64,000 bases of DNA from Escherichia phage APCEc01, in the sequence record NC_029091.1; one strand, written 5' to 3'. This document shows, piece by piece, positions 4,204 to 57,909 of the stretch (position 1 is its first letter; each line of letters starts with the position of its first letter). Both the position numbers and the translations under genes were made by a program. The notes beneath the pieces were generated by a model, which searched no databases, was not told where the DNA came from, and worked only from the letters and a program-made list of their open reading frames with translations.

Positions 4204-4601
4204 TGTCTAATATCAATAAACTTTATTCAGATATCGACCCAGAAATGCGTATGGATTGGAACAAGGACGTTGCTCGTTCTGTAGGACTTCGTTCTATTAA
4301 AAATAGTCTTCTTGGCATAGTGACAACTAGAAAAGGCTCACGCCCCTTCGACCCTGAATTTGGATGTGATTTGGTCGATGAACTTTTCGAGAACATGACA
4401 CCACTTACAGCCGATACGATTGAGCGTAATATCCAGGCAGCTGTTCGTAACTATGAGCCACGCATCGACAAACTTTCTGTAAGTGTAACGCCAGTATATG
4501 ATGACTATATGGTTATAGTAGAGATTAGATTTTCGGTCGTAGACAACCCTGACGATATTGAACAAATTAAACTTCAGTTAGCGTCAAGCAATAGAGTGTA
4601 A
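4203..4601 (+). CDS. 25: gp25 baseplate wedge subunit
   Basis: 132 aa, size and synteny as T4 gp25; ATGA-type overlap with gene 26. Confidence 0.8.
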   Translation: MSNINKLYSDIDPEMRMDWNKDVARSVGLRSIKNSLLGIVTTRKGSRPFDPEFGCDLVDELFENMTPLTADTIERNIQAAVRNYEPRIDKLSVSVTPVYDDYMVIVEIRFSVVDNPDDIEQIKLQLASSNRV

Positions 4602-10898: not shown

Positions 10899-12182
10899 TT
10901 ATTCATCAATGATAATTTTTGGTAGCTTAACACCTAATAAAACAGACAAGTCTGAACGTCCTGCCATTTTATCCATGTCCCCGCCATCAATTATTCTCGC
11001 TTCTTTTTCGTCTTTTGCTACTGTGTAAGGATTTGCTGATAAAGCATATCTAACCAATAATCCGATAGACGGTTGCAAACTTTCCGGATCAACTACAACT
11101 TTAAATGCACCGACATGTTCCGGGTCATCTAAATCTACTCCTTCAGTGTATGGAGCATAAAAGATGGACCCTACAATTTCTTTTTCGCCGATATTTTCTA
11201 CAACACCCACAATAACATAATCTAACGGACTGTTGGTATCGCAGTAAAGAGGTAATCCATTTGCCAAGAATCCATAAGCATTTTGTGAAAGATACTTGTC
11301 ATCTTCTGGCTTATGTTTTAACCAACCAGAAGCAGCAAGAATAGCAGCTGCACGAGCTGAGGCTACACAAAACGTTGCAGTATAAGTTGTCTCTTTTTGA
11401 ATGTGTGATACCATTTCACACACCATTCGATATAATGAACGACCTGCTTCTGGAGCGGATGCATAGCTCAAGTCAATAAATCCGGTGTCAGTAATTCCAG
11501 TAACTTTATAACGTTTCGATACAGTAATTAAAGACTGAAGAATATCTTTATTAATTTCATCAGCCATTTCAGTAGCAAGCAAATCTTCTAAGAAGTTAGG
11601 GGCATCAAATCCATTCGCTTCCAAATCTTGCGCTAATTCAACCGTGAGGCCAGTTTTAAGTTTACGAGATTTGACTGAAGTTTGCCATTTATTAATCTGG
11701 AATCTTGCATCAGAAATTTCGCTACCAGAGCTTTCAAATTTGCTTGTTACCGCTGCATCTGAAAATAACCGTACCTTTAAATGAACGACTGCAATCTGAA
11801 GAGCTAATTCTAGATCACTTTCTTGAATATCTGCAAATGGTGTATCTTCTAACACTTTATAGACGATATTATTATATTTGAAAAAATCACCTTTATTTAG
11901 TGTGACTTTTGATTCTTCTGTGAGCTCAGTAATTTTTTCTCGGTCTACATATCCAACTTCGCCAGCATAAGTAGCACCGGTTTTAAATGTGAATTCGTTA
12001 TCTGGGTTAAGATATTTGATACCATAAAAAGCAGCAACAGGTTGATTAGTTCTTTGTGTTGCTACAATGTCAGAATATATTAATTTAGTCGTAGCGCGAG
12101 TCAAAGCAACGAGATTTGGGCGACCAATTGAGTTGCTAGTAGACGTTGTAGATTCACGCAATAATTTTTGGATTTTACTCAT
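10899..12182 (-). CDS. 24: gp24 head vertex protein
   Basis: 427 aa, gp23 paralogue, size equals T4 gp24. Confidence 0.9.
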   Translation of the reverse strand: MSKIQKLLRESTTSTSNSIGRPNLVALTRATTKLIYSDIVATQRTNQPVAAFYGIKYLNPDNEFTFKTGATYAGEVGYVDREKITELTEESKVTLNKGDFFKYNNIVYKVLEDTPFADIQESDLELALQIAVVHLKVRLFSDAAVTSKFESSGSEISDARFQINKWQTSVKSRKLKTGLTVELAQDLEANGFDAPNFLEDLLATEMADEINKDILQSLITVSKRYKVTGITDTGFIDLSYASAPEAGRSLYRMVCEMVSHIQKETTYTATFCVASARAAAILAASGWLKHKPEDDKYLSQNAYGFLANGLPLYCDTNSPLDYVIVGVVENIGEKEIVGSIFYAPYTEGVDLDDPEHVGAFKVVVDPESLQPSIGLLVRYALSANPYTVAKDEKEARIIDGGDMDKMAGRSDLSVLLGVKLPKIIIDE

Positions 12183-12209
12183 TGCATTTTTTCCTTATGT
12201 GATATAGAT

Positions 12210-12217
12210 TATTTATA
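12210..12217 (-). promoter_or_regulatory. late promoter TATAAATA (minus strand) for gene 24
   Basis: plus-strand TATTTATA about 30 nt upstream of gp24 start. Confidence 0.5.
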
Positions 12218-12223
12218 AAGATT

Positions 12224-12253
12224 GTTTACAACGTATTTGGTATGTGATACTAT
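12224..12253 (+). promoter_or_regulatory. T4-type early promoter (GTTTAC -35, 18 nt, TACTAT -10)
   Basis: matches T4 early promoter architecture; the -10 and leader are identical to the copy at 48560. Confidence 0.55.
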
Positions 12254-12289
12254 AGACTTATCAACTACAGAGGAGTAAACAAAATGACT
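12248..12289 (+). repeat. 42-bp promoter/leader/start cassette, identical copy at 48560-48601
   Basis: tactatagacttatcaactacagaggagtaaacaaaatgact read at both loci. Confidence 0.8.
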
Positions 12290-12553
12290 AAAGCACGTTT
12301 CTTACGAGATACTTTAAAAGTTCTGGAAGCTGAAGCAGTTAAGTTAGTAGAAAAATATGGTGCAAAAGTTAATGGTAATGCCTTCAACAAAGTATGGATG
12401 AAAGTTGATTCTGAAGCTCGAGCTAAAGGTTATTGGGCCACTGATAAACTTGCATCATTCAAAAACAAAGACGGTTCTCCGGCATATGTCCAAGAAGGTA
12501 TGCCTAATTGGCAAAATATTTTGAAAACTTACATCGAAATTGCACAGAAATAA
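12284..12553 (+). CDS. hypothetical early protein (89 aa) inserted between late genes 24 and 23
   Basis: ORF with SD GAGGAG and early promoter; opposite strand to flanking late genes. Confidence 0.6.
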   Translation: MTKARFLRDTLKVLEAEAVKLVEKYGAKVNGNAFNKVWMKVDSEARAKGYWATDKLASFKNKDGSPAYVQEGMPNWQNILKTYIEIAQK

Positions 12554-12557
12554 AACC

Positions 12558-12588
12558 AAAAATGGGAGACCGAAGTCTCCCAAAATAA
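12558..12588. terminator. bidirectional terminator between small ORF and gene 23
   Basis: GGGAGAC-cgaa-GTCTCCC hairpin flanked by A/T runs. Confidence 0.65.
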
Positions 12589-12605
12589 GATTTAATCAAT
12601 TAAGA

Positions 12606-14174
12606 TTAGATGCCTTTTACATATACACGGCGGAAGTAAGCGTTCTTACCAAGGCTGTTCAGGATAGATGGCATACCGGACTGGATGCGAGCACCTGGAG
12701 CCTGCAGGGAACTTTCAGCAAACGGGTTAACACCGATACCGTAACGAGTTTTAAAGCCCATTACCGGCTGGAAGTTCTTAGGATCGGAACCACGCAGCGG
12801 GGTAAGTGCAACGTAAGGAGCATAGTAAATACCTGCATCCATTTCGTTAGCGCCTTTGTAACCAACGGTGAAGTAATCCTGTTTAGCATACTGGTCGATG
12901 TATACGCGGTATTTACCACCAAGTACACCGGCAAATACAGACTTAGTAGTGTCGGTATTAAAACCAGAAGCCAGACCCTGTGCAGCGTAAGAAATACCAG
13001 TATCAACTGAAGCCAGTACGTTAACTACGTTACGGGAAGCGATAATGAAGTTACCTTCACCGCGACCGGTTTGACGAGCAATTTCAACTGCTTCTTTATC
13101 AATCTGGAACAACAGAGATTTAAAGCTTTCACCGGCCCAACGAGCACCACGGATATCAATCGGGTCCTGGAAGTCAAATACACCAGCTTTAGAACCCGGA
13201 GTCAGGGTCATACCAGATTTACCAACCTGTGCAGAGTAGTTAATCCAATCAACAACTTCACGGTTGATTTCTAGCATAATTTCTGTAGCCAGAATACCGC
13301 TCAATTCAGCATCAGCATCCATACCGTGTACTGCACGGAGGTCTTGTGCTAATTCGATAGAGTAAGCAGCTTTCAGCTGGCGAGATTTAGCTTCGATAAC
13401 TTGTTTATCGATACGGAAGCCCATTTCATTCCATGGGTTATCGGTAGAACCGTTGAAACCTTCCTGGAGTTCAGCGATAGAAGTAGCCATACCTTCAGCG
13501 ATTTCTACCAGTGCACCAGCTTCCATTTGTTTCTTAACTTCTGCATCTAATTTAGCTGCATCAGTTGCACCAGAATCAAGTGTTACGACAGCAGAAGCTT
13601 GCAGATATACAGTACCAGTTTCTTGGAAGAAGTGAGTATAGATATCACCTACAACAGTAGTAGTGCCAGCAGCCAGAGCTGGGAATTTCTTAGCAGCACC
13701 CTGACCAGAGAACATCGCATCTGGAGCATACATCGGATGGAAAGCTTCTTTAGCGCCAGCAGCGATAGGGTCTTTACCATATACTGCACGGAGAGCAAAT
13801 ACCTGACCGGTCGGGCTGTTCATAGGCTGAACACCACAAATATCAAAAGCGATCAGATTAGGAATAGCACGACGAACCATACCCATAACTGCCGGCCCAA
13901 TTTGGGTTACTGCACCAGAGGTTTGACCCGCTGCGATGTTCTGAGCATTATAACCATGGTCACCACCAATTTCAGCTTCGGTCAAGAAAGAACCAAATGC
14001 CTGAGCGATTTTCTCGTCTTTATATTCAGGGGATACTTCGAAATCTTTTTCCTGGTTTTCGAAGATTTTAGCGATAATAGCCTGCTTGCTGTTAGCGATT
14101 TCCGGCAGGCCTTCACCTTCCAGCAGTTCTTTCCATTTGTCTACGAGCTGAGCTTTAGTTTTGATAGTAGTCAT
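12606..14174 (-). CDS. 23: gp23 major capsid protein
   Basis: 522 aa; near identical to T4 gp23 as recalled over almost the whole length. Confidence 0.97.
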   Translation of the reverse strand: MTTIKTKAQLVDKWKELLEGEGLPEIANSKQAIIAKIFENQEKDFEVSPEYKDEKIAQAFGSFLTEAEIGGDHGYNAQNIAAGQTSGAVTQIGPAVMGMVRRAIPNLIAFDICGVQPMNSPTGQVFALRAVYGKDPIAAGAKEAFHPMYAPDAMFSGQGAAKKFPALAAGTTTVVGDIYTHFFQETGTVYLQASAVVTLDSGATDAAKLDAEVKKQMEAGALVEIAEGMATSIAELQEGFNGSTDNPWNEMGFRIDKQVIEAKSRQLKAAYSIELAQDLRAVHGMDADAELSGILATEIMLEINREVVDWINYSAQVGKSGMTLTPGSKAGVFDFQDPIDIRGARWAGESFKSLLFQIDKEAVEIARQTGRGEGNFIIASRNVVNVLASVDTGISYAAQGLASGFNTDTTKSVFAGVLGGKYRVYIDQYAKQDYFTVGYKGANEMDAGIYYAPYVALTPLRGSDPKNFQPVMGFKTRYGIGVNPFAESSLQAPGARIQSGMPSILNSLGKNAYFRRVYVKGI

Positions 14175-14191
14175 TTGTGTTAACCTTTAAA

Positions 14192-15004
14192 TTAGAAACG
14201 AGATGCGACTTTCGCATATAAACTTACATTAGAATTCTGTTCTACCTGAGTTGTGGTAGTGTCAACTGCTTCGGCAACAAAATTAAGACCGGCAGCGTCA
14301 TTGTCAACTGTATTTATACTTTCGGTAATAGCGGCTTCTTCTTTAGTAGAACCTTTAACCATTTCTACAATAGCAGTTAACTTAGTACCAAATGCGTCAG
14401 AATAATCCATACCTTCAACCAGGCCAATAACTTTTTCTTTCTGAGATTCAGTCAGGTCTTTTACGCTTTCATTAATAGCGGTTTCACGCTGAACGTAATT
14501 GATATATGCATCACGTTTGGTAACTTCTTCGAACAAACGAGCGGTTTCTTCTTTATGTTCGGCCAGCTCTTCTTCCATTTCTGCTACAACATCTACAGAT
14601 TCTTCTGGAACAACAACGTTATGTTCAACAAACAGTTCTTTCAGACCACCAAGCATGGATTCGAACAAATCAGCTTTAATGCCTTTATCAACTGCGATTT
14701 GGTTTTCTGCGAGCCATTCTTTTGCAAGATGGTCTAGGAATTTAGAAGCTTGTTCAGCCAATTTTTTATCAGCTTTCTCTTCAGCATCTTCTTTAGCCTT
14801 TTCAACTTCTTCTTCGGCCTTTTCGGCGATGGCTTTGATATGAGATTCAGCAAGTTTGACTGCTTCCTGCTTAACGGTGGCTTCGAATACAGTGCTGAAA
14901 TTAGCTTTAACGTCCGGAGACAGTTCTACTGATTCGAAAACACTATTAAGAGCAACTGAAGTCTCGATGTTCTGAGCTTCTTTCAAAAGTTGTTCTTTGA
15001 TCAT
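14192..15004 (-). CDS. 22: gp22 prohead core scaffold protein
   Basis: 270 aa, acidic coiled-coil-rich, size and position as T4 gp22. Confidence 0.85.
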   Translation of the reverse strand: MIKEQLLKEAQNIETSVALNSVFESVELSPDVKANFSTVFEATVKQEAVKLAESHIKAIAEKAEEEVEKAKEDAEEKADKKLAEQASKFLDHLAKEWLAENQIAVDKGIKADLFESMLGGLKELFVEHNVVVPEESVDVVAEMEEELAEHKEETARLFEEVTKRDAYINYVQRETAINESVKDLTESQKEKVIGLVEGMDYSDAFGTKLTAIVEMVKGSTKEEAAITESINTVDNDAAGLNFVAEAVDTTTTQVEQNSNVSLYAKVASRF

Positions 15005-15034
15005 TTTAGTGTCCTGTGGTTTAGATTACATTAT

Positions 15035-15042
15035 TATTTATA
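15035..15042 (-). promoter_or_regulatory. late promoter TATAAATA (minus strand) for gene 22
   Basis: plus-strand TATTTATA just upstream of gp22 start. Confidence 0.45.
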
Positions 15043-15679
15043 ATGCTTTTAAACTCTCTGCGAGAGCTTTAAATGCTTCGTCAGCACTGTTTTTGGTGAT
15101 TTCCACCGAATTTTCTGATTCTGATATTTGTTTAGGAGTAACCCAAGCATCTGGAGCAGAAGGTCCCCATACGGCATCTACGCCGACGGTTAATTTAAAT
15201 CCTTCGTTCACGATACGGTACCCTTTATTGGTGTCGGTTAAAGAACCAAGACCACGAGAGGAAACACCTGGAATCCAACCAGCTCGTATATTAGCAGCTA
15301 ATTTATCGCCGGGACCATGGTCGCCTTCAATAATTCTAGCACGTCCATATACATCGTTTCCTTTCCACCACATATCTTCGATAATGATAGCGGCTTGCAT
15401 AGGGTCAACATTTGCACGAGGTGGATGGTTTAATTCTCCAAGGGCTTGTTTGGTTGCGACTTGTTCTTTAATATAGTCACTTACTGCTTTTTCCAAAACG
15501 CGTTTAGGATATAAACGTTTATTTCGGTTAACAACCTCTGCCTGAAGAAAAATACCTTCTATATAAAGCCCTGGTTTTAAGCCAGAATCTTTTCCATCAT
15601 GAGATTCCAACATTGGAACGCCATCAATAATCTCACCGGGTTGACCCCAAGTTTCAATAAGTAACTCGGGTTTATTCAT
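15038..15679 (-). CDS. 21: gp21 prohead core protease
   Basis: 213 aa; [20 protein letters not shown]... matches T4 gp21 as recalled. Confidence 0.9.
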   Translation of the reverse strand: MNKPELLIETWGQPGEIIDGVPMLESHDGKDSGLKPGLYIEGIFLQAEVVNRNKRLYPKRVLEKAVSDYIKEQVATKQALGELNHPPRANVDPMQAAIIIEDMWWKGNDVYGRARIIEGDHGPGDKLAANIRAGWIPGVSSRGLGSLTDTNKGYRIVNEGFKLTVGVDAVWGPSAPDAWVTPKQISESENSVEITKNSADEAFKALAESLKAL

Positions 15680-16104
15680 TAGCTTAATCCTAATGCTTTA
15701 CGACGTTTAAGAGCCTTTTTACGCTTACGCAAGCCTTTAACTTGGCCTGAAGGGTTAGCTTTTTTAGCTTTAACGACCTTACGAGCGATTTGTCTACGTT
15801 TTGCTTTAGAAAGACCAGTGGTTTGGAACGCGTTACGTTCACGAGTTTTACGGTCTTTAGTGCGGGTGACTTCACCACGAGAAGAAACATGTTTAACGAT
15901 AAACTCATTTAACTGTTCTTCATTAATAATGGAAGCCATTGCAACAGCTAAATCCGTTTCAGTTTCAAGCATGTTCTCGATAATAGTATTTATATCGTCA
16001 ATATCGAGAGCAGAAGACAATGCATCGATTCGGCCCTGTGCTTCAGGAATAAGTGCTTCGACATTTTCGAGTACCAATTCATAAGATTCAGGGATAAGAT
16101 ACAT
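15679..16104 (-). CDS. 68: gp68 prohead core protein
   Basis: 141 aa, basic C-terminus, position between 67 and 21. Confidence 0.7.
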
Positions 16105-16343
16105 TATTCATCGTCCTCATCATCTTCGTCTTCGTCGTCATCGCCTTCATCAGCGTCGTCTTCCGAAGCTTTAGCTTTCTTTTCTTCTTCTTCAGGTTCT
16201 TCGCCTTCAATCAAAAATTGAGAAGCGATTTCTGCTTTGCGTGCTTCAATCAAACGAACCGTTTTTTCTGCCATTGCACTTTCAAAAAACTTTCGAGTAG
16301 CAACGAGGTCGTTTGATTTAATAGCTTGAATTAAATCGTCCAT
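16104..16343 (-). CDS. 67: gp67 prohead core protein
   Basis: 79 aa, highly acidic C-terminal tail, position after gene 20. Confidence 0.7.
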
Positions 16344-17914
16344 TAAAAATCCTCTTGTTCTTGGTCGGGGTCTTGGAAACGAGCCTCTTTCGACTCTTCT
16401 TCAATTTGCTTAGCCTCTTGTTCAATTTCCTCGTCAGACATCTGAAGAATATCTTTCATAGCTGTTCTGTGAGAAATATATTTACCAATAAATGGTTCGG
16501 CCATCTGAAGCATATTAATGCGACGCTCCAGAATCTCAGCATCCTTTAATTCCGAGAAATAACTATCCCGATGAAATTTTATCTTAATATTATTTATTTC
16601 ATCATTCCACTCATCTTCTGTAATAATTCCTTTAAGAATTAAATTAGTTTTAAGCGGGTCTAGGAATATCTCTTCAAATTTATGTTGCAGCTCACGAATA
16701 AATTTACCAAATGACAATTCATCTCGTGTAATAGAAGTACCAGCATCAAACTGTATACCACCTTGGTCACTTGGAATACGGGTAATAGGAATACGTAAAG
16801 CCATATAAAGCGCATTACGGAACCAACGTACATCTTCCATATTTCCGGTATTATCTGCACCTGGTAATGTATCAACTTCTGTTACTGCTTTACCATCACG
16901 TCGTTGTAACCAATAATCTTCGGTCATCGACATAATATGCTGTTGGTTTTTAATCTTGCCTGTAGTAGCATCATATGCAATACGGTTTTTCATCGTATTC
17001 ATAACATGTTGCATATGTTCTGCTGCTTTTCTTGAAGGCATATTACCTGTATCAACGTACCATACACGACGATCGGGAGCACGAGTAATACGATAAATTA
17101 CGACAGCATCTTCAAGAAGTTTTAATTGGTTCGCTGGCTTAATAGCCCGATGCAAATAACCGATGATATTTTTACCACAACAATCAACTAAACCAGAATG
17201 GGCGTAAACAATCGCGGCTTTAGGGATTTTTATTTTTGTGCCCGCTTCATATATGCGACCATCACAAGCATAAGATTCGTGTGATGTGTCATAAATGAAA
17301 TATTCTTTATAACCCTTGACTATTTTAACACCGGCTTCAGTGGTTGTAATAACTTCACGGACATATTGAACTTGACGTGGGTCTAAACGACGAAGCTCTT
17401 TAATACCTTCTTTAGGGCGTTTAGGGTCAATAATTTTATGGAAGAAAATTCGAGAATCTACATACCAACGTCTAAAATGATCTGAACCTTTACGTTGGAA
17501 AGATAAATGATTCAACACTTCGTTAAATTCATCCAACATCATTGATTTGATATTTGGGCTAAATTTTGTGTTGTCTAAATTTATAGAAACGACTTCTGTA
17601 TCGTCTTCATACACGATAGCATCGGAAACTATTTCAGAGACTGCATTATCCACTTCATAGTTCGTCATCAAATTTCGATACGTATCGATTAATTCACGGG
17701 TTGATTTGAGCCCTGGTTCTTGACTACCGAACATTCTCTGAAACATAGCATTATATGTTTGCTGTGCTTCATTTTCAGATACTTCGTATTCTTTAGCGCC
17801 GTCGTCCAATTTTGGTGCGGTGATAGATTCTAAATTTTCTTTTTCTTGGTCTTTGTAATCACGTTCGTCCATTTTTGCCCATGGAGCAAACAAACTTAAG
17901 ATATTAAATTTCAT
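16343..17914 (-). CDS. 20: gp20 portal vertex protein
   Basis: 523 aa, size and sequence consistent with T4 gp20. Confidence 0.9.
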
Positions 17915-43244: not shown

Positions 43245-43979
43245 ATGGAGCTAATCTTTTTAAGTGGCATCAAACGTAGTGGTAAAGACACCACTGCTGA
43301 TTACATCAATTCAAACTTTAAATCCGTAAAATACCAATTAGCATATCCAATTAAAGACGCTCTAGCAATAGCCTGGGGACGTAGGCATGCTGAAAATCCT
43401 GATGTATTCACAGAGTTGAAATACGAATACTTTGAAGGCATTGGATACGACCGTGAAACACCATTAAATCTCAATAAGTTGGATGTTATTGAATTATTGG
43501 AAGAAGCGCTAATTTATTTGCAAAGTCAATATTTACCGATTAATAATGTTAAAGTATTATCATCGTTAGAAGGTGGATATTCGTATCTAGATATTAAACC
43601 ATATGAAGCCCTGCGTGAAGCTATAAATAATATCAACGACACATGGTCAATCCGCCGTCTTATGCAAGCCCTCGGTACGGATGTTGTCGTTAATTTATTT
43701 GACCGTATGTATTGGGTTAAACTTTTTGCATTAAACTATATGGATTATATTGGAAGTGATTTCGATTACTATGTTGTGACCGATACACGCCAAGTCCATG
43801 AAATGGAAACCGCTAGAGCGATGGGTGCTACAGTTATTCATGTGGTTCGCTCTGGTACGGAATCCACCGATAAACATATTACAGAAGCTGGGTTGCCTAT
43901 TGAAGAAGGCGATTTAGTTATTACAAACGACGGCTCTTTAGAAGAGCTTTATTCTAAAATTGAAACAATCTTAAGGTAA
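43245..43979 (+). CDS. 1: gp1 deoxynucleoside monophosphate kinase
   Basis: 244 aa; P-loop GIKRSGKDT; size and position as T4 gp1. Confidence 0.85.
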   Translation: MELIFLSGIKRSGKDTTADYINSNFKSVKYQLAYPIKDALAIAWGRRHAENPDVFTELKYEYFEGIGYDRETPLNLNKLDVIELLEEALIYLQSQYLPINNVKVLSSLEGGYSYLDIKPYEALREAINNINDTWSIRRLMQALGTDVVVNLFDRMYWVKLFALNYMDYIGSDFDYYVVTDTRQVHEMETARAMGATVIHVVRSGTESTDKHITEAGLPIEEGDLVITNDGSLEELYSKIETILR

Positions 43980-43983
43980 TAAA

Positions 43984-44669
<686 letters not shown>

Positions 44670-44682
44670 TTTTCACAAAACA

Positions 44683-44712
44683 GTTTACATAAAGATGATG
44701 GTGTGTTACTAT
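44683..44712 (+). promoter_or_regulatory. early promoter (GTTTAC, 18 nt, TACTAT); upstream 26 bp identical to 53125-53150
   Basis: aaataattttcacaaaacagtttaca shared with the promoter at 53143. Confidence 0.55.
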
Positions 44713-44746
44713 CATCCTATCAAATAAACAGCCTCAAGGAAATAAA

Positions 44747-45034
44747 ATGAAATCCTATAAAGAATTTATATCACCTTTTGCTAACGTTTCTACTCTGACC
44801 GAAGCAACCCTTACTTCCGAAGTTATTAAAGCAAATAAAGGACGTGAGGGTAAACCAATGATTAGCCTGGTTGACGGCGAAGAAGTAAAAGGTACTGTTT
44901 ACTTAGGGGATGGATGGTCTGCTAAGAAAGACGGCGCTACTATTGTTATCTCTCCGGCCGAAGAGACTGCACTGTTTAAAGCTAAGCATATTTCTGTAGC
45001 TCAGCTTAAAATTATTGCAAAAACTCTTCTGTAA
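44747..45034 (+). CDS. ipI: internal protein I-like, capsid targeting sequence MKSYKEFI
   Basis: 95 aa (T4 IpI size), N-terminal CTS resembling T4 consensus MKTYQEFIAE, position next to 57B. Confidence 0.6.
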   Translation: MKSYKEFISPFANVSTLTEATLTSEVIKANKGREGKPMISLVDGEEVKGTVYLGDGWSAKKDGATIVISPAEETALFKAKHISVAQLKIIAKTLL

Positions 45035-45037
45035 GTA

Positions 45038-45086
45038 GTTTACATGCTGATAGGACTATGTTATAGTAGTCCTATCAAAACAAATG
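45038..45086 (+). promoter_or_regulatory. early promoter embedded in stem-loop (PeSL-like cassette, copy A)
   Basis: GTTTAC, 17 nt, TTATAG inside 9-bp inverted repeat ATAGGACTA/TAGTCCTAT; near-identical copies at 51859 and 53423. Confidence 0.6.
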
Positions 45087-45104
45087 AGTAAATGGAGAAA
45101 TAAA

Positions 45105-45290
45105 ATGAAACGCGCTGAACTGATTCGTAATGTTGCTGTAGTAATTGCTTCAATGGCTTTTAGTTTTTCGATGTTTGTAGGATTCATTTGCGGACTACTG
45201 ACAACAACTGAAAATTCTATCTCATTGGTAGTAGCATTTCTAATCGGTTTAATCGCTATCGTTATGGATAAAATTGCAAAAGGTGAGTAA
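45105..45290 (+). CDS. small membrane protein (61 aa, two predicted TM helices)
   Basis: start chosen at ATG with SD GGAG; hydrophobic stretches VAVVIASMAFSFSMFVGFICGLL and LVVAFLIGLIAIVM. Confidence 0.5.
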   Translation: MKRAELIRNVAVVIASMAFSFSMFVGFICGLLTTTENSISLVVAFLIGLIAIVMDKIAKGE

Positions 45291-45291
45291 A

Positions 45292-45654
45292 ATGAAATAT
45301 CACGTATATGCGGATTTTGAAGCAAATCCTTCTAAAGACCCTGATTGTCGTTTGATACGCAAACCATTTGATTCAGCAGCTCAAGCATGGACTTGGATTA
45401 AATCTAAATCGCCTGGTTATATGTTCTTTGAAGTAGTCGATGACAATGGTACACTGCATCCAGAACCTACAGAAACTATTAATTTCCTTCTGTTTGCTGG
45501 TTACGACTGTTATCCTCTTGGTGGTATTGATGATCTTGTTGCTACAGGAAAAACTGTTGAGGCTCTTCGCGAAATTTATAAAAACGCAGAAGAAAATTTT
45601 GACTGGTACCAGATTGTCAGTGCACATACTTTTGAAGTGGTGGAACACTCATGA
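45292..45654 (+). CDS. hypothetical protein (120 aa)
   Basis: ORF with SD GGTGAG upstream of MKYHVYADF. Confidence 0.5.
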   Translation: MKYHVYADFEANPSKDPDCRLIRKPFDSAAQAWTWIKSKSPGYMFFEVVDDNGTLHPEPTETINFLLFAGYDCYPLGGIDDLVATGKTVEALREIYKNAEENFDWYQIVSAHTFEVVEHS

Positions 45655-45941
45655 TTCTTTACGCTAAAGTAAAATCTGTCGAGAACGGATATGAAAGCGA
45701 TCAACGTGCAGCTAAAGCACTAGTCGATGACTATGGTATTTTGACTAATTTTGAAGTTGAAAAGGTTTATATCGACCGTTCATCTTCGCAAGTTAAATTA
45801 CTCTGTGAAGATGATAAATTTAACACAGTTAACTTTGATTTCTTTATTGAAACAGAAAAAGGCCCTCTTGAATATGATATTTTCAAGAATCCTTTGAAAT
45901 TACGTTGCATTGAATATAATTACATTAATATGGTACGGTGA
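45651..45941 (+). CDS. hypothetical protein (96 aa)
   Basis: ORF with ATGA overlap to upstream gene. Confidence 0.5.
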   Translation: MILYAKVKSVENGYESDQRAAKALVDDYGILTNFEVEKVYIDRSSSQVKLLCEDDKFNTVNFDFFIETEKGPLEYDIFKNPLKLRCIEYNYINMVR

Positions 45942-45945
45942 GTAA

Positions 45946-46461
45946 ATGAATATTTGTTTAGGCAGTACAATTCCTAAGGGTTACGTAATTGATGTCACTA
46001 CTTGGGAAAATGACGGCGACAACTATAAAACTAAAACGTTGTTTGGTGTAGAAGAGCATGAGCTCCAACAGTTTAAATATCTCTTGAAGAAATTTAAGAG
46101 TCGTCATTCCAGCACTAAAGCTGAACGTTACTGTGGTAATACACCATTCAGTGATTGCTCGCTTTTAATCTATGAATACTTGGTTGAAGGACTGTTCTCA
46201 GACCAGCTTTATCCAGAATTCATTAAAAAGGTCTTTGGTATTGAAGTCGACCTTGGTAATAAATCTGAAGAAGACGAATCGCGTGTATTTGACCTGTTCC
46301 ATGAGAATGGATATTTAGTATCAGAAGGTCTCATTGATATTCTTGGCCATGCTTCTGAATATTATGATTATGATTTCTTGCGTGTAGTTGAATGTGTTGA
46401 ATTTGCTTATATTGAAGAAGAAATCGTTTTGCCGACTGTTAAAATGATTGATTTGCTTTAA
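45946..46461 (+). CDS. hypothetical protein (171 aa)
   Basis: ORF in early operon. Confidence 0.5.
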   Translation: MNICLGSTIPKGYVIDVTTWENDGDNYKTKTLFGVEEHELQQFKYLLKKFKSRHSSTKAERYCGNTPFSDCSLLIYEYLVEGLFSDQLYPEFIKKVFGIEVDLGNKSEEDESRVFDLFHENGYLVSEGLIDILGHASEYYDYDFLRVVECVEFAYIEEEIVLPTVKMIDLL

Positions 46462-46540
46462 GAATTATGTGTTATTATTAATTCATACCCTCTATTACCA
46501 AAGGTGCTCTAAAGTGCCTTTCATAATAGAAAGTTATTTA

Positions 46541-46614
46541 GGCCCTGTAGCTCAATGGTTAGCAGCAGTCCCCTCATAAGGGAAAGGTTACCAGTTCGAA
46601 TCTGGTCTGGGTCA
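46541..46614 (+). tRNA. tRNA with CAU anticodon (Met or lysidine-modified Ile)
   Basis: cloverleaf: acceptor GGCCCTG/CTGGGTC, anticodon loop CTCATAA, T-arm ACCAG-TTCGAAT-CTGGT; D-stem imperfect. Confidence 0.6.
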
Positions 46615-46620
46615 TATATT

Positions 46621-46697
<77 letters not shown>

Positions 46698-46715
46698 ACT
46701 TTAAGTGAGGAAAAT

Positions 46716-47060
46716 ATGAAAGGTAATATTTATCTGGTAGTTCATGATTTAACGTTTTATTTTAATGAACAGGATACAGTTATTTCCGACCGGTTGATTA
46801 ATTCGTTATATCAACACGCTGATTACGTTTATTTCCAAAATGAATTTGGCCATTGGAAGTTTCTTAAAAACCGTTCCGGGTTAACTAGTTTTGAATACTT
46901 TGACCGTAAAGACCTTTTAAACGAAATTCCATTACAACATCGGTTCCAGAAACGCGAATCACTATACTATTGTCGTCATATACCAAATGCTGAATGTGTT
47001 TATGAAGCGATTAATCTATGGCGTCGGCGTCGAGAGCAAATTGATGATATGCCAAAATAA
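46716..47060 (+). CDS. hypothetical protein (114 aa)
   Basis: start at ATG with SD GAGGA downstream of the tRNAs; the track ORF start lies inside the tRNA. Confidence 0.5.
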   Translation: MKGNIYLVVHDLTFYFNEQDTVISDRLINSLYQHADYVYFQNEFGHWKFLKNRSGLTSFEYFDRKDLLNEIPLQHRFQKRESLYYCRHIPNAECVYEAINLWRRRREQIDDMPK

Positions 47061-47064
47061 GAAG

Positions 47065-47372
47065 CCGGGTCGCTACCGGCAAGTCGTCGGACTGATGTTC
47101 CCTGAGTAAGGACTGGTCTTAATAAATCTTTACGATTTGTTAATATCCCCTTACATCACAGCAGAAACGGCGCACAGAATTATCGATTCGAGGAAATATC
47201 TTTGTCGTAAGCCGAGTAGCGTTTTTGACGGAACGTTCGGATATGGTCGAGATATGGCCTTTTAAAAATATTGAGTAGCGTCAACTGCTTAATAACCGGG
47301 TTCGAATCCCGGCGTTTCGTACAAACACTTGCCTTAGCAGGTGGAACCCCGACAAGGTTGCCGCAAGGCTTA
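47065..47372 (+). ncRNA. putative small stable RNA region (position of T4 rnaC/rnaD species 1 and 2 RNAs)
   Basis: about 300 nt with no plausible plus-strand ORF, tRNA-like T-arm CCGGG-TTCGAAT-CCCGG at about 47287, ends at a terminator. Confidence 0.3.
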
Positions 47373-47400
47373 GCCCCTTCCGAAAGGTCGGGGCTTTTTG
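47373..47400 (+). terminator. rho-independent terminator
   Basis: GCCCCttccgaaaggtcGGGGC followed by TTTTTGG; same motif family as 47916 and 63611. Confidence 0.6.
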
Positions 47401-47444
47401 GCATAATAATAAATAGATAAGTTAATTAACTTAGGAAAAGCAAC

Positions 47445-47909
47445 ATGAAATCATACGCTGAATTTTTGACTGAACAATCTAGTTCAGATGTAAAAGCCGC
47501 TGCGATTGCAGCAATTCAAGCAGGTAAATATTCTTACAAAGACGCCTCTGATGAAGAACGTTTCCGTTTTATTAGAGATTTTAAAGCCGAAGGTTTTACT
47601 AATGCTAATACTGTTAGCCGAGTTTTTAAAAGCCTAGCTGCATCAGGTGAATTGTTCCAGAAAGCTACAGGTAAAGCACCTGCGCCAAAAACAGACCCTA
47701 AAGCAGCTCAAGAAAAAAATATCGCCAAAGGAATTATTTCTAAGTATGAAGCAATTCTTAAAGAGCTTTTAGTAATCAAAACAGAAGGCCAGAAACTGGC
47801 ACGAGCACATAGCTTCAAAGATAATCCTCACGCTCATAGCCTTGAGTATGTTGAAGATATCCAAAAACTTATTAAAGACCGTATCTGGTCTGCTAAACAA
47901 ATTAAATAA
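47445..47909 (+). CDS. internal-protein-like protein with capsid targeting sequence MKSYAEFLTE (154 aa)
   Basis: N-terminal CTS motif, lysine/alanine-rich. Confidence 0.55.
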   Translation: MKSYAEFLTEQSSSDVKAAAIAAIQAGKYSYKDASDEERFRFIRDFKAEGFTNANTVSRVFKSLAASGELFQKATGKAPAPKTDPKAAQEKNIAKGIISKYEAILKELLVIKTEGQKLARAHSFKDNPHAHSLEYVEDIQKLIKDRIWSAKQIK

Positions 47910-47915
47910 TAGAAT

Positions 47916-47944
47916 GCCCCTTCCTTATGGTTGGGGCCTTTTGG
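47916..47944 (+). terminator. rho-independent terminator
   Basis: GCCCCttccttatggttGGGGC then CTTTTGG. Confidence 0.6.
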
Positions 47945-47975
47945 TATCTAGGGCATAAAAATATTTCATAAAGAT

Positions 47976-48004
47976 GTTTACTTCTTCTAAGGACATGATA
48001 CTAT
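47976..48004 (+). promoter_or_regulatory. early promoter (GTTTAC, 17 nt, TACTAT)
   Basis: consensus spacing; leader tagacttatcaacc...gagga resembles other cassettes. Confidence 0.55.
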
Positions 48005-48032
48005 AGACTTATCAACCATAGAGGAAAATGTT

Positions 48033-48536
48033 ATGAGTCTTTACACTGAACTGAATAAAAAATCTGAAGAATCTGCTGAAACTATTTTTAAAAACGTGCA
48101 AAAGCGTATTTTGGAAAAGATGTACGATGCAGCATCTAAAGGTGAAAAATCTTGCCGGTTTCCGATGAGGTGTTCTTCTGATTTATGCGCAAATACTATT
48201 GAATGGCTGGAAAGTGAAGGTCTTACGGTAGAGAAAAACCCGGCGACTTCTATTGACGGCGAATCATATATTAGTATTTCTTGGGATAAATCAAGGGTAG
48301 AAGAGAAAGATGGTGATTGGGTTGTAGATGTTAAAACTTCTGATGGTGGACGTTCTGTTGAAGTTTCAGCTGTAGTTAAAGGCACCCACGAACAAAGGAC
48401 TTGGGGTTGGGGTGGTGAAGAAAAAGAAATTGTTCTTAGTGTGATTGCCAGGTCAACTAGTAATAAAATTGCACAAAGCATCATTGACGCTGCAATTGCT
48501 GAAGCAGAAAAAATTTGCAAAATTAAAAATAAATGA
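48033..48536 (+). CDS. hypothetical protein (167 aa)
   Basis: ORF with promoter and SD; the overlapping minus-strand ORF is a shadow. Confidence 0.55.
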   Translation: MSLYTELNKKSEESAETIFKNVQKRILEKMYDAASKGEKSCRFPMRCSSDLCANTIEWLESEGLTVEKNPATSIDGESYISISWDKSRVEEKDGDWVVDVKTSDGGRSVEVSAVVKGTHEQRTWGWGGEEKEIVLSVIARSTSNKIAQSIIDAAIAEAEKICKIKNK

Positions 48537-48537
48537 T

Positions 48538-48565
48538 GTACAAACGCCAAGGATGGTGGTACTAT
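48538..48565 (+). promoter_or_regulatory. early promoter (TGTACA -35-like, TACTAT -10)
   Basis: -10 and leader identical to cassette at 12248. Confidence 0.5.
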
Positions 48566-48601
48566 AGACTTATCAACTACAGAGGAGTAAACAAAATGAC
48601 T
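48560..48601 (+). repeat. 42-bp promoter/leader/start cassette, second copy
   Basis: identical to 12248-12289. Confidence 0.8.
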
Positions 48602-48760
48602 ACTTTAATTATTTGGTTCGATGAAAATGAAGAAACATACTGTGTGAATATTGGTGAAAGTCCAATGCCTGAATTTGAATCCTCGGATAAAAACTCTGTT
48701 GTATCTTGGGCTGAAGGTTATAAAGCAGCTAAAGGTGACGTTGAAATAATTTACATCTAA
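48596..48760 (+). CDS. hypothetical small protein (54 aa), not in ORF track
   Basis: ATG preceded by SD GAGGAG from the cassette; MTTLIIWFDENEETYCVNIG... Confidence 0.45.
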   Translation: MTTLIIWFDENEETYCVNIGESPMPEFESSDKNSVVSWAEGYKAAKGDVEIIYI

Positions 48761-48778
48761 GTAAGTTTATGTTATAGT
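48750..48778 (+). promoter_or_regulatory. early promoter (TTTACA, 17 nt, TATAGT)
   Basis: sigma70-like hexamers with 17 nt spacer. Confidence 0.5.
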
Positions 48779-48806
48779 AATCACATCAAATCAAGAGGAA
48801 AATAAA

Positions 48807-49034
48807 ATGGCTAAAGTTAGTATTGATGTCGTTGATTATGAATACACCGAAGAAGTTATTCGCAACCGACACCCTGAAGTTCGTATCGATTCAGTCCAAG
48901 ATTCCAAGTTCTGGACAACTGAGCTTAATCTGAGTGGTCCTTATGAAGCTGTTAAGAAGTTCATGGTTGAAGAATACTGCGAAGGCATGCACCCCGAAGA
49001 CGCCAAGTTTTATGTCAATTTGATTAAAAAATAA
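48807..49034 (+). CDS. hypothetical protein (75 aa)
   Basis: ORF with SD AGAGGAA. Confidence 0.5.
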   Translation: MAKVSIDVVDYEYTEEVIRNRHPEVRIDSVQDSKFWTTELNLSGPYEAVKKFMVEEYCEGMHPEDAKFYVNLIKK

Positions 49035-49069
49035 TTTACAAACTCTTGAGAGCAGAGTATAATGCTCTC
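49035..49069 (+). promoter_or_regulatory. early promoter (TTTACA, 17 nt, TATAAT) with -10 inside inverted repeat GAGAGCA/TGCTCTC
   Basis: consensus hexamers and 7-bp inverted repeat flanking the -10. Confidence 0.55.
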
Positions 49070-49104
49070 ATCGGATAACAAACCACCAATTGAAAGGTAA
49101 TAAT

Positions 49105-49698
49105 ATGAACACACTGAAGAAACTTGTTGAATTCATCCGCACTAAACTTGGTACTGCTATGGCTAAAAATCTGACTGTCGAAGAACAGTATAACGCAGCT
49201 GCAGATAAGTTGATTACCCAAATCAAAGAACTAAAAACGGCTTCTGTTAAATCTATTAATGAAGAAAAACGTATTCGCGAACTTGTTAATGAAAAGAACA
49301 AACAAGCCGCTTCTAAGGAACGTGAAATTCGTAAGCTCTTGGCTGAAGGACAAGATGTTACCATGCATGCTAAGCTTGGTCTTCTGTATCGTCGAACTGC
49401 CGAACAACTTAATACAAAGGCTGACGGGTATGCCGCTATGCGAATTGAAATTGCTCGTAAGGTGGTTGAACTTGATGATGCTCGTCAGAATCTGGCAATC
49501 AAACTCGAATACATTCGTGAAACTCGAGCAGCCAATGCCCTTGGTATCTCTACGGCTGATGATGTAATTGAAATCGCTGCACTGACTAAGGTTGATATCG
49601 AAGACACTCTGACTCGTGTTGAAACGTTCAATGGCACTCCAGCCGGTGTCGAAACCACTTCTGCTGATGTACAAGAATATATTAACTCTTTGAAATAA
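49105..49698 (+). CDS. hypothetical coiled-coil protein (197 aa)
   Basis: ORF, predicted mostly helical; the minus-strand ORF 49231-49749 is a shadow. Confidence 0.5.
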
Positions 49699-55187: not shown

Positions 55188-55635
55188 GAAAAATAAAGTG
55201 AAAGAACTATCAGCCGGTATTATTTTCCTTACCGAAGATAAAGAATTATTCATGGGGCGTGTAACTGGTTCTCGTCCTAAAGGTGCATTAGCTCATCGGT
55301 GGGATATTCCTAAAGGCCGTGTCGAACCTGGCGAATCTCCTATTGAAGCCGCTATTCGTGAATGCGAAGAAGAAACTGGGTTTACACAATATGACCCTGC
55401 CTTCCTGAAAGACCTAGGTGAACATCATTACTCAGACAATAAGAATATTCATCTGTTCCTATATACCATCCCTGTAGAGCACGAGCAATTCAGAAACAGT
55501 GTTTGTAATTCCTATCATACATTCCCAGACGGACGACAGATTCCTGAATTTGATGCATTCGCTTTAATTAAACCTTCTCAATGGGAATATGTAATGGGTA
55601 AATCATTATATAAGGTGCTCACTACACTCCTATAA
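55177..55635 (+). CDS. nudE: Nudix hydrolase NudE
   Basis: 152 aa; Nudix box GRVEPGESPIEAAIRECEEETGF; immediately upstream of e as T4 e.1. Confidence 0.8.
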   Translation: MMSKKNKVKELSAGIIFLTEDKELFMGRVTGSRPKGALAHRWDIPKGRVEPGESPIEAAIRECEEETGFTQYDPAFLKDLGEHHYSDNKNIHLFLYTIPVEHEQFRNSVCNSYHTFPDGRQIPEFDAFALIKPSQWEYVMGKSLYKVLTTLL

Positions 55636-55642
55636 GTAATAA

Positions 55643-55668
55643 ATACCTCCTATAAACGTGGGAGGTAT
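55643..55668 (+). promoter_or_regulatory. stem-loop sequestering the lysozyme RBS, with late-promoter-like TATAAACG in the loop
   Basis: 8-bp inverted repeat ATACCTCC/GGAGGTAT; 3' arm contains SD GGAGG two nt before ATG. Confidence 0.55.
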
Positions 55669-55669
55669 T

Positions 55670-56158
55670 ATGAATATATTTGAAATGCTTCGTAATGACG
55701 AAGGTCTTAGACTGACTTTATACAAAGACACTGAAGGCTTTTGGACGATTGGCATAGGCCATTTAGTAACAAAGAACCCGTCTTTAGCCGTAGCTAAAGC
55801 TGAACTTGACAGAATGATCGGTCGTAAATGCAACGGTACAATTACCCTTGATGAGGCTGAAAAGCTATTTAATGAAGACGTTGATAAAGCCGTCCGCGGA
55901 ATCTTGGGTAATGCTAAACTTAAACCGGTATATGATTCTTTAGACGCAGTTCGTCGGTGTGCATTGGTCAATATGGTCTTCCAAATGGGTGTAGCAGGAG
56001 TCGCCGGTTTTACTAATTCTCTTCGTATGCTTCAACAGAAACGTTGGGATGAAGCGGCAGTAAATCTAGCCCAATCTAAATGGTATCGTCAGACACCTAA
56101 TCGCGCGAAACGCGTAATCTCAACATTTAAAACAGGAACTTGGAAAGCGTATATATGA
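55670..56158 (+). CDS. e: endolysin (T4 lysozyme)
   Basis: start at [15 protein letters not shown]...; catalytic-site context [12 protein letters not shown]; matches T4 lysozyme as recalled; track ORF starts 4 codons upstream. Confidence 0.92.
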
Positions 56159-56436
56159 AAACATATAGTGAATTTTTATCAGAATCTATTCTTAACGAAG
56201 CTACTGACACATTTGCAACTAAGCTAGGTGCAGCTTTGGTTGAAGCTGAAAGTCTATTAGCACGTATTTCTGAACTTGCTAGTAAGATAGATACTCGCAA
56301 ATTTGAACGTACCAGCGATATCGCTAAGCTTGAAGCCTTGTTGCGTATGTGCGATAAACCAGAAGAAATCGCTAAGAACGGCTCGCTGATGAAACAACGT
56401 CTTGAAAAATATATTTCAGGCGCTTCAGAAAAATAG
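56155..56436 (+). CDS. internal-protein-like protein with [13 protein letters not shown] (93 aa)
   Basis: CTS motif; ATGA overlap with e stop; IpIII/IpII locus position. Confidence 0.55.
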
Positions 56437-56437
56437 T

Positions 56438-56489
56438 GTTTACTTCCTCCAAGGGTTTTGATACTATACATTCATCAACTACTTGGAGG
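56438..56489 (+). promoter_or_regulatory. early promoter (GTTTAC...TACTAT) inside 8-bp inverted repeat CCTCCAAG/CTTGGAGG containing the SD
   Basis: promoter hexamers and inverted repeat read directly. Confidence 0.5.
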
Positions 56490-56494
56490 AAATT

Positions 56495-56908
56495 ATGACT
56501 CGTATCAATTTAACACTTGTTTCTGAACTGTCCGACCAACATCTTATGGCTGAGTATCGTGAATTACCACGCGTATTTGGTGCAGTCCGTAAACATGTTC
56601 AAAACGGTAAACGTGTAAAGGATTTTAAAATCTCTCCAACATTTATCTTAGGCACAGGTCACGTAACATTCTTTTACGACAAACTCGAATTTTTACGTTT
56701 ACGTCAAATCGAGCTAATCGCTGAATGCTTGAAACGTGGTTTCAAAATCAAGGACACGACTGTCCAGGATATTTCCGACATTCCTGTAGAATTTCGTAAT
56801 AATTACGTCCCGTCCGAAGCGTCCATTGCGATAAGTCAAGCACGCTTAGATGAAAAAATTGCTCAACGTCCGACTTGGTACAAATACTATGGTAAATCAA
56901 TTTACTAA
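56495..56908 (+). CDS. denV: endonuclease V (pyrimidine dimer DNA glycosylase / AP lyase)
   Basis: 137 aa from [35 protein letters not shown]...; near identical to T4 DenV as recalled. Confidence 0.92.
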
Positions 56909-56915
56909 GGAAAAA

Positions 56916-57176
56916 ATGAAAATGTATCAAGAATTTATCATTGAAGTAGATGCCAAAGACCCCAAATTTAAAGTTAAAGCTTTCATTGGTGATGCGGAAG
57001 ACTTTGGCTCATTAAAACGTAATGGGTATTCTTTCTTGGGTGGCGATGGTAAAGAAATCAACACCTATGCAAAACGTAGTGAAATTGCTTATGTTGTAGT
57101 AAGTCCTAAAGTAGATGTTGACGATATTGGATACGATTTTAACAACTTCGGAATTATTTCTGGCGGTAAAGCTTAA
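56916..57176 (+). CDS. internal-protein-like protein with CTS MKMYQEFIIE (86 aa)
   Basis: CTS motif, SD AAGGAAA. Confidence 0.55.
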   Translation: MKMYQEFIIEVDAKDPKFKVKAFIGDAEDFGSLKRNGYSFLGGDGKEINTYAKRSEIAYVVVSPKVDVDDIGYDFNNFGIISGGKA

Positions 57177-57182
57177 ATTGTT

Positions 57183-57212
57183 TACGCTTAAGTATTAATA
57201 TGGTATAATTAC
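57183..57212 (+). promoter_or_regulatory. early promoter (GTTTAC, 18 nt, TATAAT)
   Basis: consensus hexamers. Confidence 0.55.
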
Positions 57213-57239
57213 TCTATCAAAACAAACAAGGAAACAAAA

Positions 57240-57554
57240 ATGAAAACGTATAAAGAATTTATTGCAGAATCCGCCAACCAACGCGTTGAAGGTGGTTATA
57301 TTTGGATTGAACAAGTTGAGCCACCGAGCCGCACTTCTACAGGTAAATGGAAAATTACTGTTGACGGTCCTGGCGGTAAACGTAGGACTCTTAAAGAAAT
57401 TAACGGGTACTATGAAGAAGCTCTTTCGGATGCAGGAACTTACATGATGCAAATCATGATTAAAAACCCTGAAAACCGTTTTGCAGCTAAAGTCTTCCGT
57501 CGTATTGGTAATAAACTTTATGATGCATACTCTAAAAACTTCCCTAAAGAATAA
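57240..57554 (+). CDS. internal-protein-like protein with CTS MKTYKEFIAE (104 aa)
   Basis: N-terminus almost identical to T4 CTS consensus. Confidence 0.6.
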   Translation: MKTYKEFIAESANQRVEGGYIWIEQVEPPSRTSTGKWKITVDGPGGKRRTLKEINGYYEEALSDAGTYMMQIMIKNPENRFAAKVFRRIGNKLYDAYSKNFPKE

Positions 57555-57579
57555 CATAAATTAAAACAATAGGAACAAA

Positions 57580-57909
57580 ATGAAAACATATCAGGAGTTT
57601 ATCACTGAAGTTACATTATCTGCGGAACAGAAAGCTGCTATCGAAGAAGGTAAAAATCCCAAAGTAACATACAAAGTAAATAGTAAAGGCGTTTTTGATG
57701 GCTTGGTTCAAGACCCTGAATTGAAAAAAGCTCTTTCTAAAACTAATGCGTACTTTGCTCCTAAATTTAACACAGCCGGTGTACTTATTGGATTGGACGT
57801 ATTCAACTCTAAAGGTGTTCTATCTAATGCCTTTGGTTATGCCGCTAACAAAATTACCAAAGCAGCATGGGAATCCAATACCAAACAAGCTCAAAAGCCT
57901 AGAGTATAA
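57580..57909 (+). CDS. internal-protein-like protein with CTS MKTYQEFITE (109 aa)
   Basis: N-terminus matches T4 CTS consensus. Confidence 0.6.
   Translation: MKTYQEFITEVTLSAEQKAAIEEGKNPKVTYKVNSKGVFDGLVQDPELKKALSKTNAYFAPKFNTAGVLIGLDVFNSKGVLSNAFGYAANKITKAAWESNTKQAQKPRV

Follow-up and report, generated by a model that had tools for sequence, protein, structure and literature searches.

The analysed stretch of Escherichia phage APCEc01 (NC_029091.1, 64,000 nucleotides; hereafter the window) encodes six small proteins that begin with the capsid targeting sequence (CTS) of T4-type phages, and we consider it likely that they are the internal protein (IP) complement of an RB69-like T4-type phage, injected as anti-defence effectors. 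A first-pass annotation, made from the letters of the DNA alone, had placed four such open reading frames (ORFs) in the region of the lysozyme gene e and denV and two further ones elsewhere, at 44747-45034 and 47445-47909. A motif scan, shuffled sequences and a scoring matrix agree on the four ORFs, and the two outlying ORFs were recovered as well. That annotation had also read the proteins as a diversified arsenal of injected, possibly anti-defence, proteins, and this is supported: it restates the accepted model of the literature, with which the sequence agrees in the residues Tyr4 and Phe7, in the L/I-x-E sites and in the presence of genes for gp21 and gp22. Diversity among CTS-tagged defence proteins was described by Rao and Black (2010), PMC3012670 contains the notion of a diversified anti-defence arsenal that is injected, and more than 30 IP variants are known (Arbiol et al. 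2010, PMC2839356). The interpretation is therefore already published, and the finding is correct but ordinary.

On sequence comparison, the window is an RB69-like Mosigvirus of T4 type. The DNA around the finding shares 98.5% identity with phage RB69 and 99.3% with vB_Eco_mar005P1 (both Mosigvirus, Tevenvirinae), and a second region of the window is 99.7% identical to vB_EcoM_SCS57. The ORFs are named here by their first coordinate. Scanning the window in six frames for KxYxEF gave six matches, all on the + strand and all directly after an ATG at the start of an ORF. The pattern with its initiator residue, MKxYxEF, occurred six times in the window and not once in 200 dinucleotide-preserving shuffles, and the looser KxYxEF had a mean of 0.41 per shuffle. 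A position-specific scoring matrix (PSSM) of the N-terminus, built from 20 CTS sequences including the six window N-termini, scored the six ORFs at 28-36 bits. Because the next best ORF N-terminus in the window reached only 6.7 bits, there are exactly six CTS ORFs and none was missed; the PSSM, run over the ORF N-termini, found no additional concealed CTS genes in the window.

The leaders of the six proteins contain the residues that matter for targeting and processing. In the experiments of Mullaney and Black, as recounted in PMC9026906, targeting depended mainly on residues 4 and 7 and processing on residues 8 and 10, and the first ten residues of IPIII were enough for packaging. Tyr4 and Phe7 are present in all six window N-termini. 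A gp21-type L/I-x-E site is likewise found in every leader, at residues 8-10 in five of the six. It is LTE10 in ORF 47445, IIE10 in 56916, IAE10 in 57240 and ITE10 in 57580. In ORF 44747 position 10 is Pro, and the single site is LTE19, at residues 17-19. ORF 56155 has two sites, LSE10 and LNE15. Because LNE15 is retained both in RB69ORF127c (leader MKTYMNFYQNLSLNE) and in ip5 of phage VR25 (MKTYNEFLTVTTLNE), it appears the likelier cut in ORF 56155, which is Ip5-like. The predicted mature products have 76-144 residues and 8-16 kDa. Their isoelectric points (pI) are 8.1-9.7, mostly 9-9.7, with net charges of +1 to +8, except for the 56916 product at pI 5.2, and in size and pI the products resemble T4 IpI-III. 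A 5' nucleotide alignment of nine genes (six from the window, three from T4) showed conservation over about the first 30 coding bases only, and synonymous differences occur there. Since synonymous differences fall inside the CTS codons, the conservation of the CTS points to selection acting on the peptide.

The machinery expected to act on such leaders is also encoded in the window. The gene for gp21, the prohead core serine protease (15038..15679, - strand; Pfam Peptidase_S77, E=2.9e-107), would specify the protein that removes the CTS, and the gene for gp22, the scaffolding core protein (14192..15004, - strand; Pfam T4_CASP, E=1.5e-89), codes for the structure that the CTS would bind. What the core does is described in PMC9026906. 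The genes for gp21, gp22, gp67, gp20 (portal) and gp23 lie together on the - strand at 10899-17914, and that for gp24 is also in the window.

All six ORFs encode CTS proteins, as the first-pass annotation had claimed, but one of them is no novel protein. ORF 44747 (44747..45034, + strand, 95 aa) is, to judge by its sequence, IpI itself, that is, the orthologue of the T4 protein. It matches Pfam IPI_T4 (PF11634) over residues 20-95 with E=1.4e-50 (169.6 bits against a gathering cut-off of 25), and the chain of PDB 2JUB, 'Internal protein I' (76-residue IPI*), aligns to the same residues with E=5.8e-42. None of the other five ORFs has a match to PF11634. A 19-residue propeptide, MKSYKEFISPFANVSTLTE, with a predicted cut after LTE19, precedes the 76-aa IPI*-like mature domain, which is 94.7% identical to T4 IPI*, the known GmrSD inhibitor (72 of 76 residues, 4 differences). 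The gene lies directly 3' of 57A/57B, in the same post-57B position as T4 ipI, and the T4 protein likewise has a 19-residue propeptide ending in x-T-E. Apart from the four mature substitutions, T4 IpI differs by several in the leader (MKTFKEFTST in T4, MKSYKEFISP in the window), and its site is ITE19. RB69 IPI, for which 4 differences from T4 IPI* are also reported, is stated to stop GmrSD-type restriction (PMC6024577).

Three of the four proteins in the e-denV region are homologous to named or annotated IPs. ORF 56155 (56155..56436, + strand, 93 aa) is a member of the Ip5 family, and its start codon shares bases with the stop codon of e (ATGA). Its PHROG match is phrog_3499, 'internal head protein' (E=2.1e-46), and it is 88% identical to VR25 ip5 and 47.6% identical to T2 Ip5 (over 90% of its length); Ip5 of T2 and T6 are further known relatives of this type of gene. 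ORF 56916 (56916..57176, + strand, 86 aa, MKMYQEFIIE), with a predicted cut at IIE10, starts 8 nt past denV, and its start agrees with that of RB69ORF125c. It matches phrog_2667, also labelled 'internal head protein' (E=2.3e-19), carries the same label in many RefSeq records and is 73% identical to VR25 gp125; its mature domain is mildly acidic. ORF 57240 (57240..57554, + strand, 104 aa, MKTYKEFIAE), with a predicted cut at IAE10, is an Ip10-family protein, 73% identical to VR25 ip10 and about 72-73% identical to SP18 Ip10.

The remaining two CTS families carry no IP label among the matches listed. ORF 57580 (57580..57909, + strand, 109 aa, MKTYQEFITE; predicted cut at ITE10) was found by tblastn in 89 phage records. 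Among the matches listed, nearly all are 'hypothetical' or unannotated, none is labelled as an internal protein and one distant match has an unrelated label. This family occurs in Mosigvirus, and a 36%-identical relative, WG01_115, is found in the Dhakavirus WG01 in the same position after denV. The structural model of ORF 57580 has a pLDDT of 53. ORF 47445 (47445..47909, + strand, 154 aa, MKSYAEFLTE; predicted cut at LTE10) matches phrog_2280 (function unknown) and has tblastn matches in 510 phage records, of which all those listed are 'hypothetical' or unannotated. An exhaustive HMMER search of 1.84 billion representatives gave 8 clusters and no sign of a homologue of ORF 47445 beyond its own small family. 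Its relatives in Tequatrovirus, Tegunavirus and Jiaodavirus start in a CTS-like manner (MKSYAQFLNE, MLEYSEFLKE, MKFKEFLAE and MLKFNEFLAE), and the C-terminal half is swapped out in relatives despite this start. The AlphaFold model of ORF 47445 is all-helical (pLDDT 73) with a disordered leader, and a Foldseek comparison of this model with PDB and BFVD matched nothing beyond uncharacterised relatives of the protein itself. For ORF 57580 there was no significant match in Pfam, NCBIfam, PADLOC or the PDB sequences; these searches gave no functional clue for any of the five non-IpI proteins, and a word-indexed homologue search returned close relatives only.

The mature domains had been described as unrelated, and BLASTP of the leaderless sequences bears this out, with no pairwise similarity among the six. 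When T4 IpI, IpII and IpIII were included in this all-against-all comparison, the sole match was the IpI-IpI pair; the mature domains of the five non-IpI proteins thus have no similarity to IpI, IpII or IpIII in the leaderless search. ORFs 57240 and 57580 both match phrog_3966 over their full length, and full-length BLASTP between them gives E=3e-5. Paralogy of these two genes was considered and rejected: leaderless BLASTP gave no match, and hhalign of the two family profiles without leaders gave a probability of 0.1%. Because the similarity vanishes once the leader is removed, the link between them is due to the leader alone. Clustering by remote homology, as in PHROGs, can merge unrelated internal proteins through a common 10-residue leader.

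The gene order of the cluster is nudE, e, a CTS ORF, denV, three CTS ORFs and vs.8, and the equivalent interval of T4 is nudE, e, ipIII, ipII, denV and vs.8. The lysozyme gene e (55670..56158, + strand) is the upstream anchor, and it is this ORF that the Ip5-like gene overlaps translationally. The endonuclease V gene denV (56495..56908, + strand), assigned by way of the corresponding annotation in RB69 (98.5% identity), is conserved and lies inside the cluster without being an IP gene. The proposed interleaving of denV is correct, since it falls between the first and second CTS ORFs of the cluster, and the gene order likewise confirms e and vs.8 as the flanks. In the e-vs.8 locus the window thus has four IP genes, with denV in second place, whereas T4 has two, both 5' of denV. 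T4 IpII and IpIII, which inhibit the GmrSD enzymes of ECOR21 and ECOR17, are like the cluster proteins in their locus, their 10-residue leader and their I-A-E site, and like the window proteins in size, basic charge and early-type promoters directly upstream, but their mature domains are unlike those of any window protein.

The description of the cluster as an expanded set holds relative to T4 but not otherwise, because comparable e/denV cassettes are present in VR25, where they are annotated, and in WG01. The annotated order in VR25 (Gaprivervirus) is e-ip5-denV-ip10-IP-ip7-vs.8, which is the same architecture, including the Ip5-type gene that overlaps e; the IP gene 3' of e overlaps e in KaAlpha and WG01 too. 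VR25 has homologues of three of the four window cluster proteins (88%, 73% and 73% identity). The fourth gene differs, being ip7 in VR25 and 57580 in the window, and the nearest relative of 57580 outside Mosigvirus is the WG01 protein mentioned above. In RB69 (AY303349) the four cluster genes are ORF127c, ORF125c, ORF124c and ORF123c, and ipI is present too. At positions 2556-2837, 3640-3912 and 3981-4310 of the RB69 segment used for comparison, leaders and ends are not the same as in window ORFs 56155, 57240 and 57580 of this near-identical phage. RB69ORF124c is truncated at its C-terminus, with 90 aa against the 104 aa of window ORF 57240.

The two classical variable IP loci (57B-tRNA and e-denV-vs.8) house five of the six CTS ORFs, the exception being ORF 47445, which lies at a third site 3' of the tRNA genes and of an rnaC-like RNA. 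Alignment of window 43900-49500 with the RB69 record revealed two cassette differences within DNA that is otherwise 92-98% identical. RB69 has an extra Ip7-like gene, ORF156c (starting MKTYQEFIAE), between 57B and ipI, which the window lacks. The junction is a 55-nt sequence at 44715-44769, single in the window; RB69 has two copies (77141-77087 and 76766-76712), which flank ORF156c. This repeat runs from the end of the promoter region through the ribosome binding site into the leader, of which it includes the first ~23 nt. From the arrangement of the repeats, the window looks like the product of recombination between them, or RB69 like the product of an insertion. An Ip7 gene is found at the 57B-ipI locus in Shf125875 and ATK47. 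According to Repoila et al. (1994), as cited by Arbiol et al. (PMC2839356), the two highly variable IP loci contain early-promoter-based repeats. An element of this kind may be present at 45033-45110, 3' of ipI. It has a strong early-type promoter-like site at 45039-45067 (TTTACA-17-TATAGT, with TG) and recurs, at 81-84% match, in two further places of the RB69 segment, and so appears, from its sequence, to be one of the repeated promoter-based elements tied to cassette shuffling in T4-type phages.

The second difference is at the third site. RB69 lacks window 47400-47995 with its ORF 47445; at that place (74080-72880) RB69 has another CTS protein, ORF149c (MKTYAEFLTEAAKLPSE...), together with ORF148c and e.8. 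The DNA flanking the cassette is 95-98% identical in the two phages, and ORF149c and ORF 47445 have only their first 12 residues in common. In a Yersinia phage (922-2037 of the segment compared), relatives of both families stand in tandem, that of 47445 clear and that of ORF149c weak (29% identity, E=2e-4). Because CTS cassettes differ at this site between the window and RB69, and because of the tandem in the Yersinia phage, the comparison suggests that the post-tRNA site acts as a third IP locus beyond the two in the literature.

The published model, applied to these genes, would work as follows. The N-terminal CTS leader would bind the gp22-based scaffolding core during prohead assembly, and gp21 would cut after the Glu of L/I-x-E, at residue 10 in four of the proteins, probably at residue 15 in the Ip5-like protein and at residue 19 in IpI. 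The cut would release a mature protein of 8-16 kDa, mostly basic, inside the head, and the mature proteins would be ejected into the cell together with the DNA as pre-made first-response effectors. IpI would block a GmrSD-type type IV restriction enzyme, and the other five would most likely each counter a different variant of modification-dependent nuclease or another immediate defence. The genes would lie in recombination-prone loci, in which cassettes may be exchanged behind a constant promoter-plus-leader module. The logic is like that of the Dar anti-restriction proteins of phage P1, which are packaged in the head and injected to shield the incoming DNA. The Dar proteins are an unrelated and much larger set that uses another packaging route, without a CTS and gp21 processing.

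Experiments on other phages bear on this model. IpIII is required on ECOR17, and its leader is dispensable once the host itself supplies the protein (Srikant et al. 2022). T4 Ip1, Ip2 and Ip3 each block a different GmrSD with no cross-protection (Silas et al. 2025, PMC12373910). By analogy with T4 Ip2 and Ip3, the five non-IpI proteins of the window may therefore also inhibit GmrSD enzymes, and their packaging, cleavage and injection would follow the T4 pattern. Several points weigh against extending the model to all six proteins. Ten ip genes challenged with five further active GmrSD yielded no new inhibitory pair (PMC12373910), so that other IPs may have targets outside GmrSD. RB69 DNA contains arabinosyl-hydroxymethylcytosine (arabinosyl-hmC) and not glucosyl-hmC (PMC6024577). 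By analogy with RB69, the DNA of the window phage is probably modified in the same way, unlike that of T4, and its IPs may act on other targets than the T4 IPs do. Sensitivity of RB69 to the UTI89 enzyme is noted in PMC6024577. The sequence and fold searches gave no fold or family clue for the mature domains, and the searchable literature yielded no virion proteome of an RB69-group phage. The leaders of RB69 indicate that leader function is not uniformly kept: that of ORF127c is degenerate (MKTYMNFYQN), and ORF123c has IAA in place of ITE at residues 8-10, so that Ala stands at position 10 and the residue-10 site is lost. These leader differences and the shortened end of ORF124c may be real variation or errors in an old record. 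Finally, the exact canonical late promoter TATAAATA is not found directly upstream of any of the six genes. T4 ipI, ipII and ipIII likewise have no such sequence directly upstream, the nearest ones in T4 being upstream of e, and the six proteins would presumably still be supplied late.

Other explanations for the six proteins have to be considered. They could be packaged and have a mainly physical role, as basic counter-ions for condensation or ejection of the DNA and not as specific effectors. T4 heads contain ~1000 IP molecules embedded in the DNA (PMC3012670), and five of the six mature proteins here are basic or near-neutral, as such a role would suggest. However, the mature protein of 56916 is acidic, all three T4 IPs have specific GmrSD targets, and the activity of IpIII in the host does not depend on its CTS. 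The swapping of unrelated mature domains between near-identical phages also fits target-specific selection better, and a purely physical role is therefore improbable. Somewhat less improbable, though still the minor alternative, is that the proteins are injected effectors that act on the physiology of the host or on some defence other than type IV restriction, such as takeover of transcription or translation, toxin-antitoxin systems or abortive infection. The failure of ten ip genes to reveal a new GmrSD pairing agrees with this, as do the lack of homology of five proteins to IpI, IpII and IpIII and the different sugar modification of RB69 DNA. On the other hand, every IP of known function hits GmrSD-family enzymes, and Silas et al. 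argue that the Ip loci overall track GmrSD diversity (PMC12373910).

In the case of 47445 and 57580, the CTS-like start might be a recombination by-product of the promoter-plus-leader module, and the two would then be early cytoplasmic proteins that are not packaged. The repeats at the cassette junctions do extend over the first ~23 nt of the sequence that codes for the CTS, both genes are 'hypothetical' or unannotated in nearly all matches listed, and the listed IP-type annotations of relatives are at the two classical loci, with 47445 outside both. Yet homologues in other genera keep Tyr/Phe4, Phe7 and L-x-E amid divergence and synonymous differences, whereas a passive remnant would decay. 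The presence of a CTS gene at the third locus of RB69, and of two in tandem in the Yersinia phage, also speaks against a by-product, which we regard as very unlikely. We therefore continue to favour injected anti-defence effectors for the set as a whole. We suggest only tentatively that 47445 (phrog_2280), 57580 and the third locus code for inhibitors that are injected against defences with no link to IPs so far. Candidate targets would be nucleases specific for arabinosyl-hmC DNA, or first-response systems other than GmrSD. If true, this would extend the published picture of two Ip loci that are all anti-GmrSD.

Early-type promoter-like sites follow the pattern GTTTAC, ~17 nt, TAnnAT and are often TG-extended, and T4 ipI, ipII and ipIII share this layout upstream. 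The site upstream of ipI (44684..44712, + strand; TTTACA-17-TACTAT, TG-extended) adjoins and slightly overlaps the 55-nt repeat. That of 57240 (57181-57209; TTTACG-17-TATAAT, extended TG) is strong, and a further site, recognised by eye, lies upstream of denV at 56438-56467. Upstream of e, a late-promoter-like AATAAATA is present at 55638-55645 and is followed by a hairpin (ACCTCC...GGGAGGT; within 55630-55672) in which the ribosome binding site of e would be masked. This layout recalls the early/late translational control of T4 lysozyme. The RB69 record annotates e from an internal Met, and a T4-like start, MNIFEML, is found at 55670. Upstream of 47445, a structured, tRNA-like non-coding stretch at ~47186-47325 includes a T-loop-like GGGTTCGAATCCC at 47298-47310, and a hairpin with a T-run lies at 47378-47398. 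In phage ATK47 its counterpart is annotated as 'rnaC, species 1 RNA'; ARAGORN made no call in the window stretch, and no Rfam family matched at E<=0.01.

Internal proteins are effectors that are delivered with the phage DNA and help to set host range. The concept is long established and has recently been confirmed experimentally, and the value of the present analysis lies mainly in annotation: an RB69-like phage has six such genes, and close relatives differ by whole cassettes. Mildly new are the two CTS families that carry no IP label and the third cassette-swapping locus. Modest additions are the assignment of one ORF to IpI, including its propeptide of 19 residues, the likely cut of the Ip5-like protein at LNE15, and the recognition that 57240 and 57580 were grouped in PHROGs because of their leaders only. 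For researchers in phage therapy and bacterial defence, ORFs that bear the leader tell which genes to test on wild hosts.

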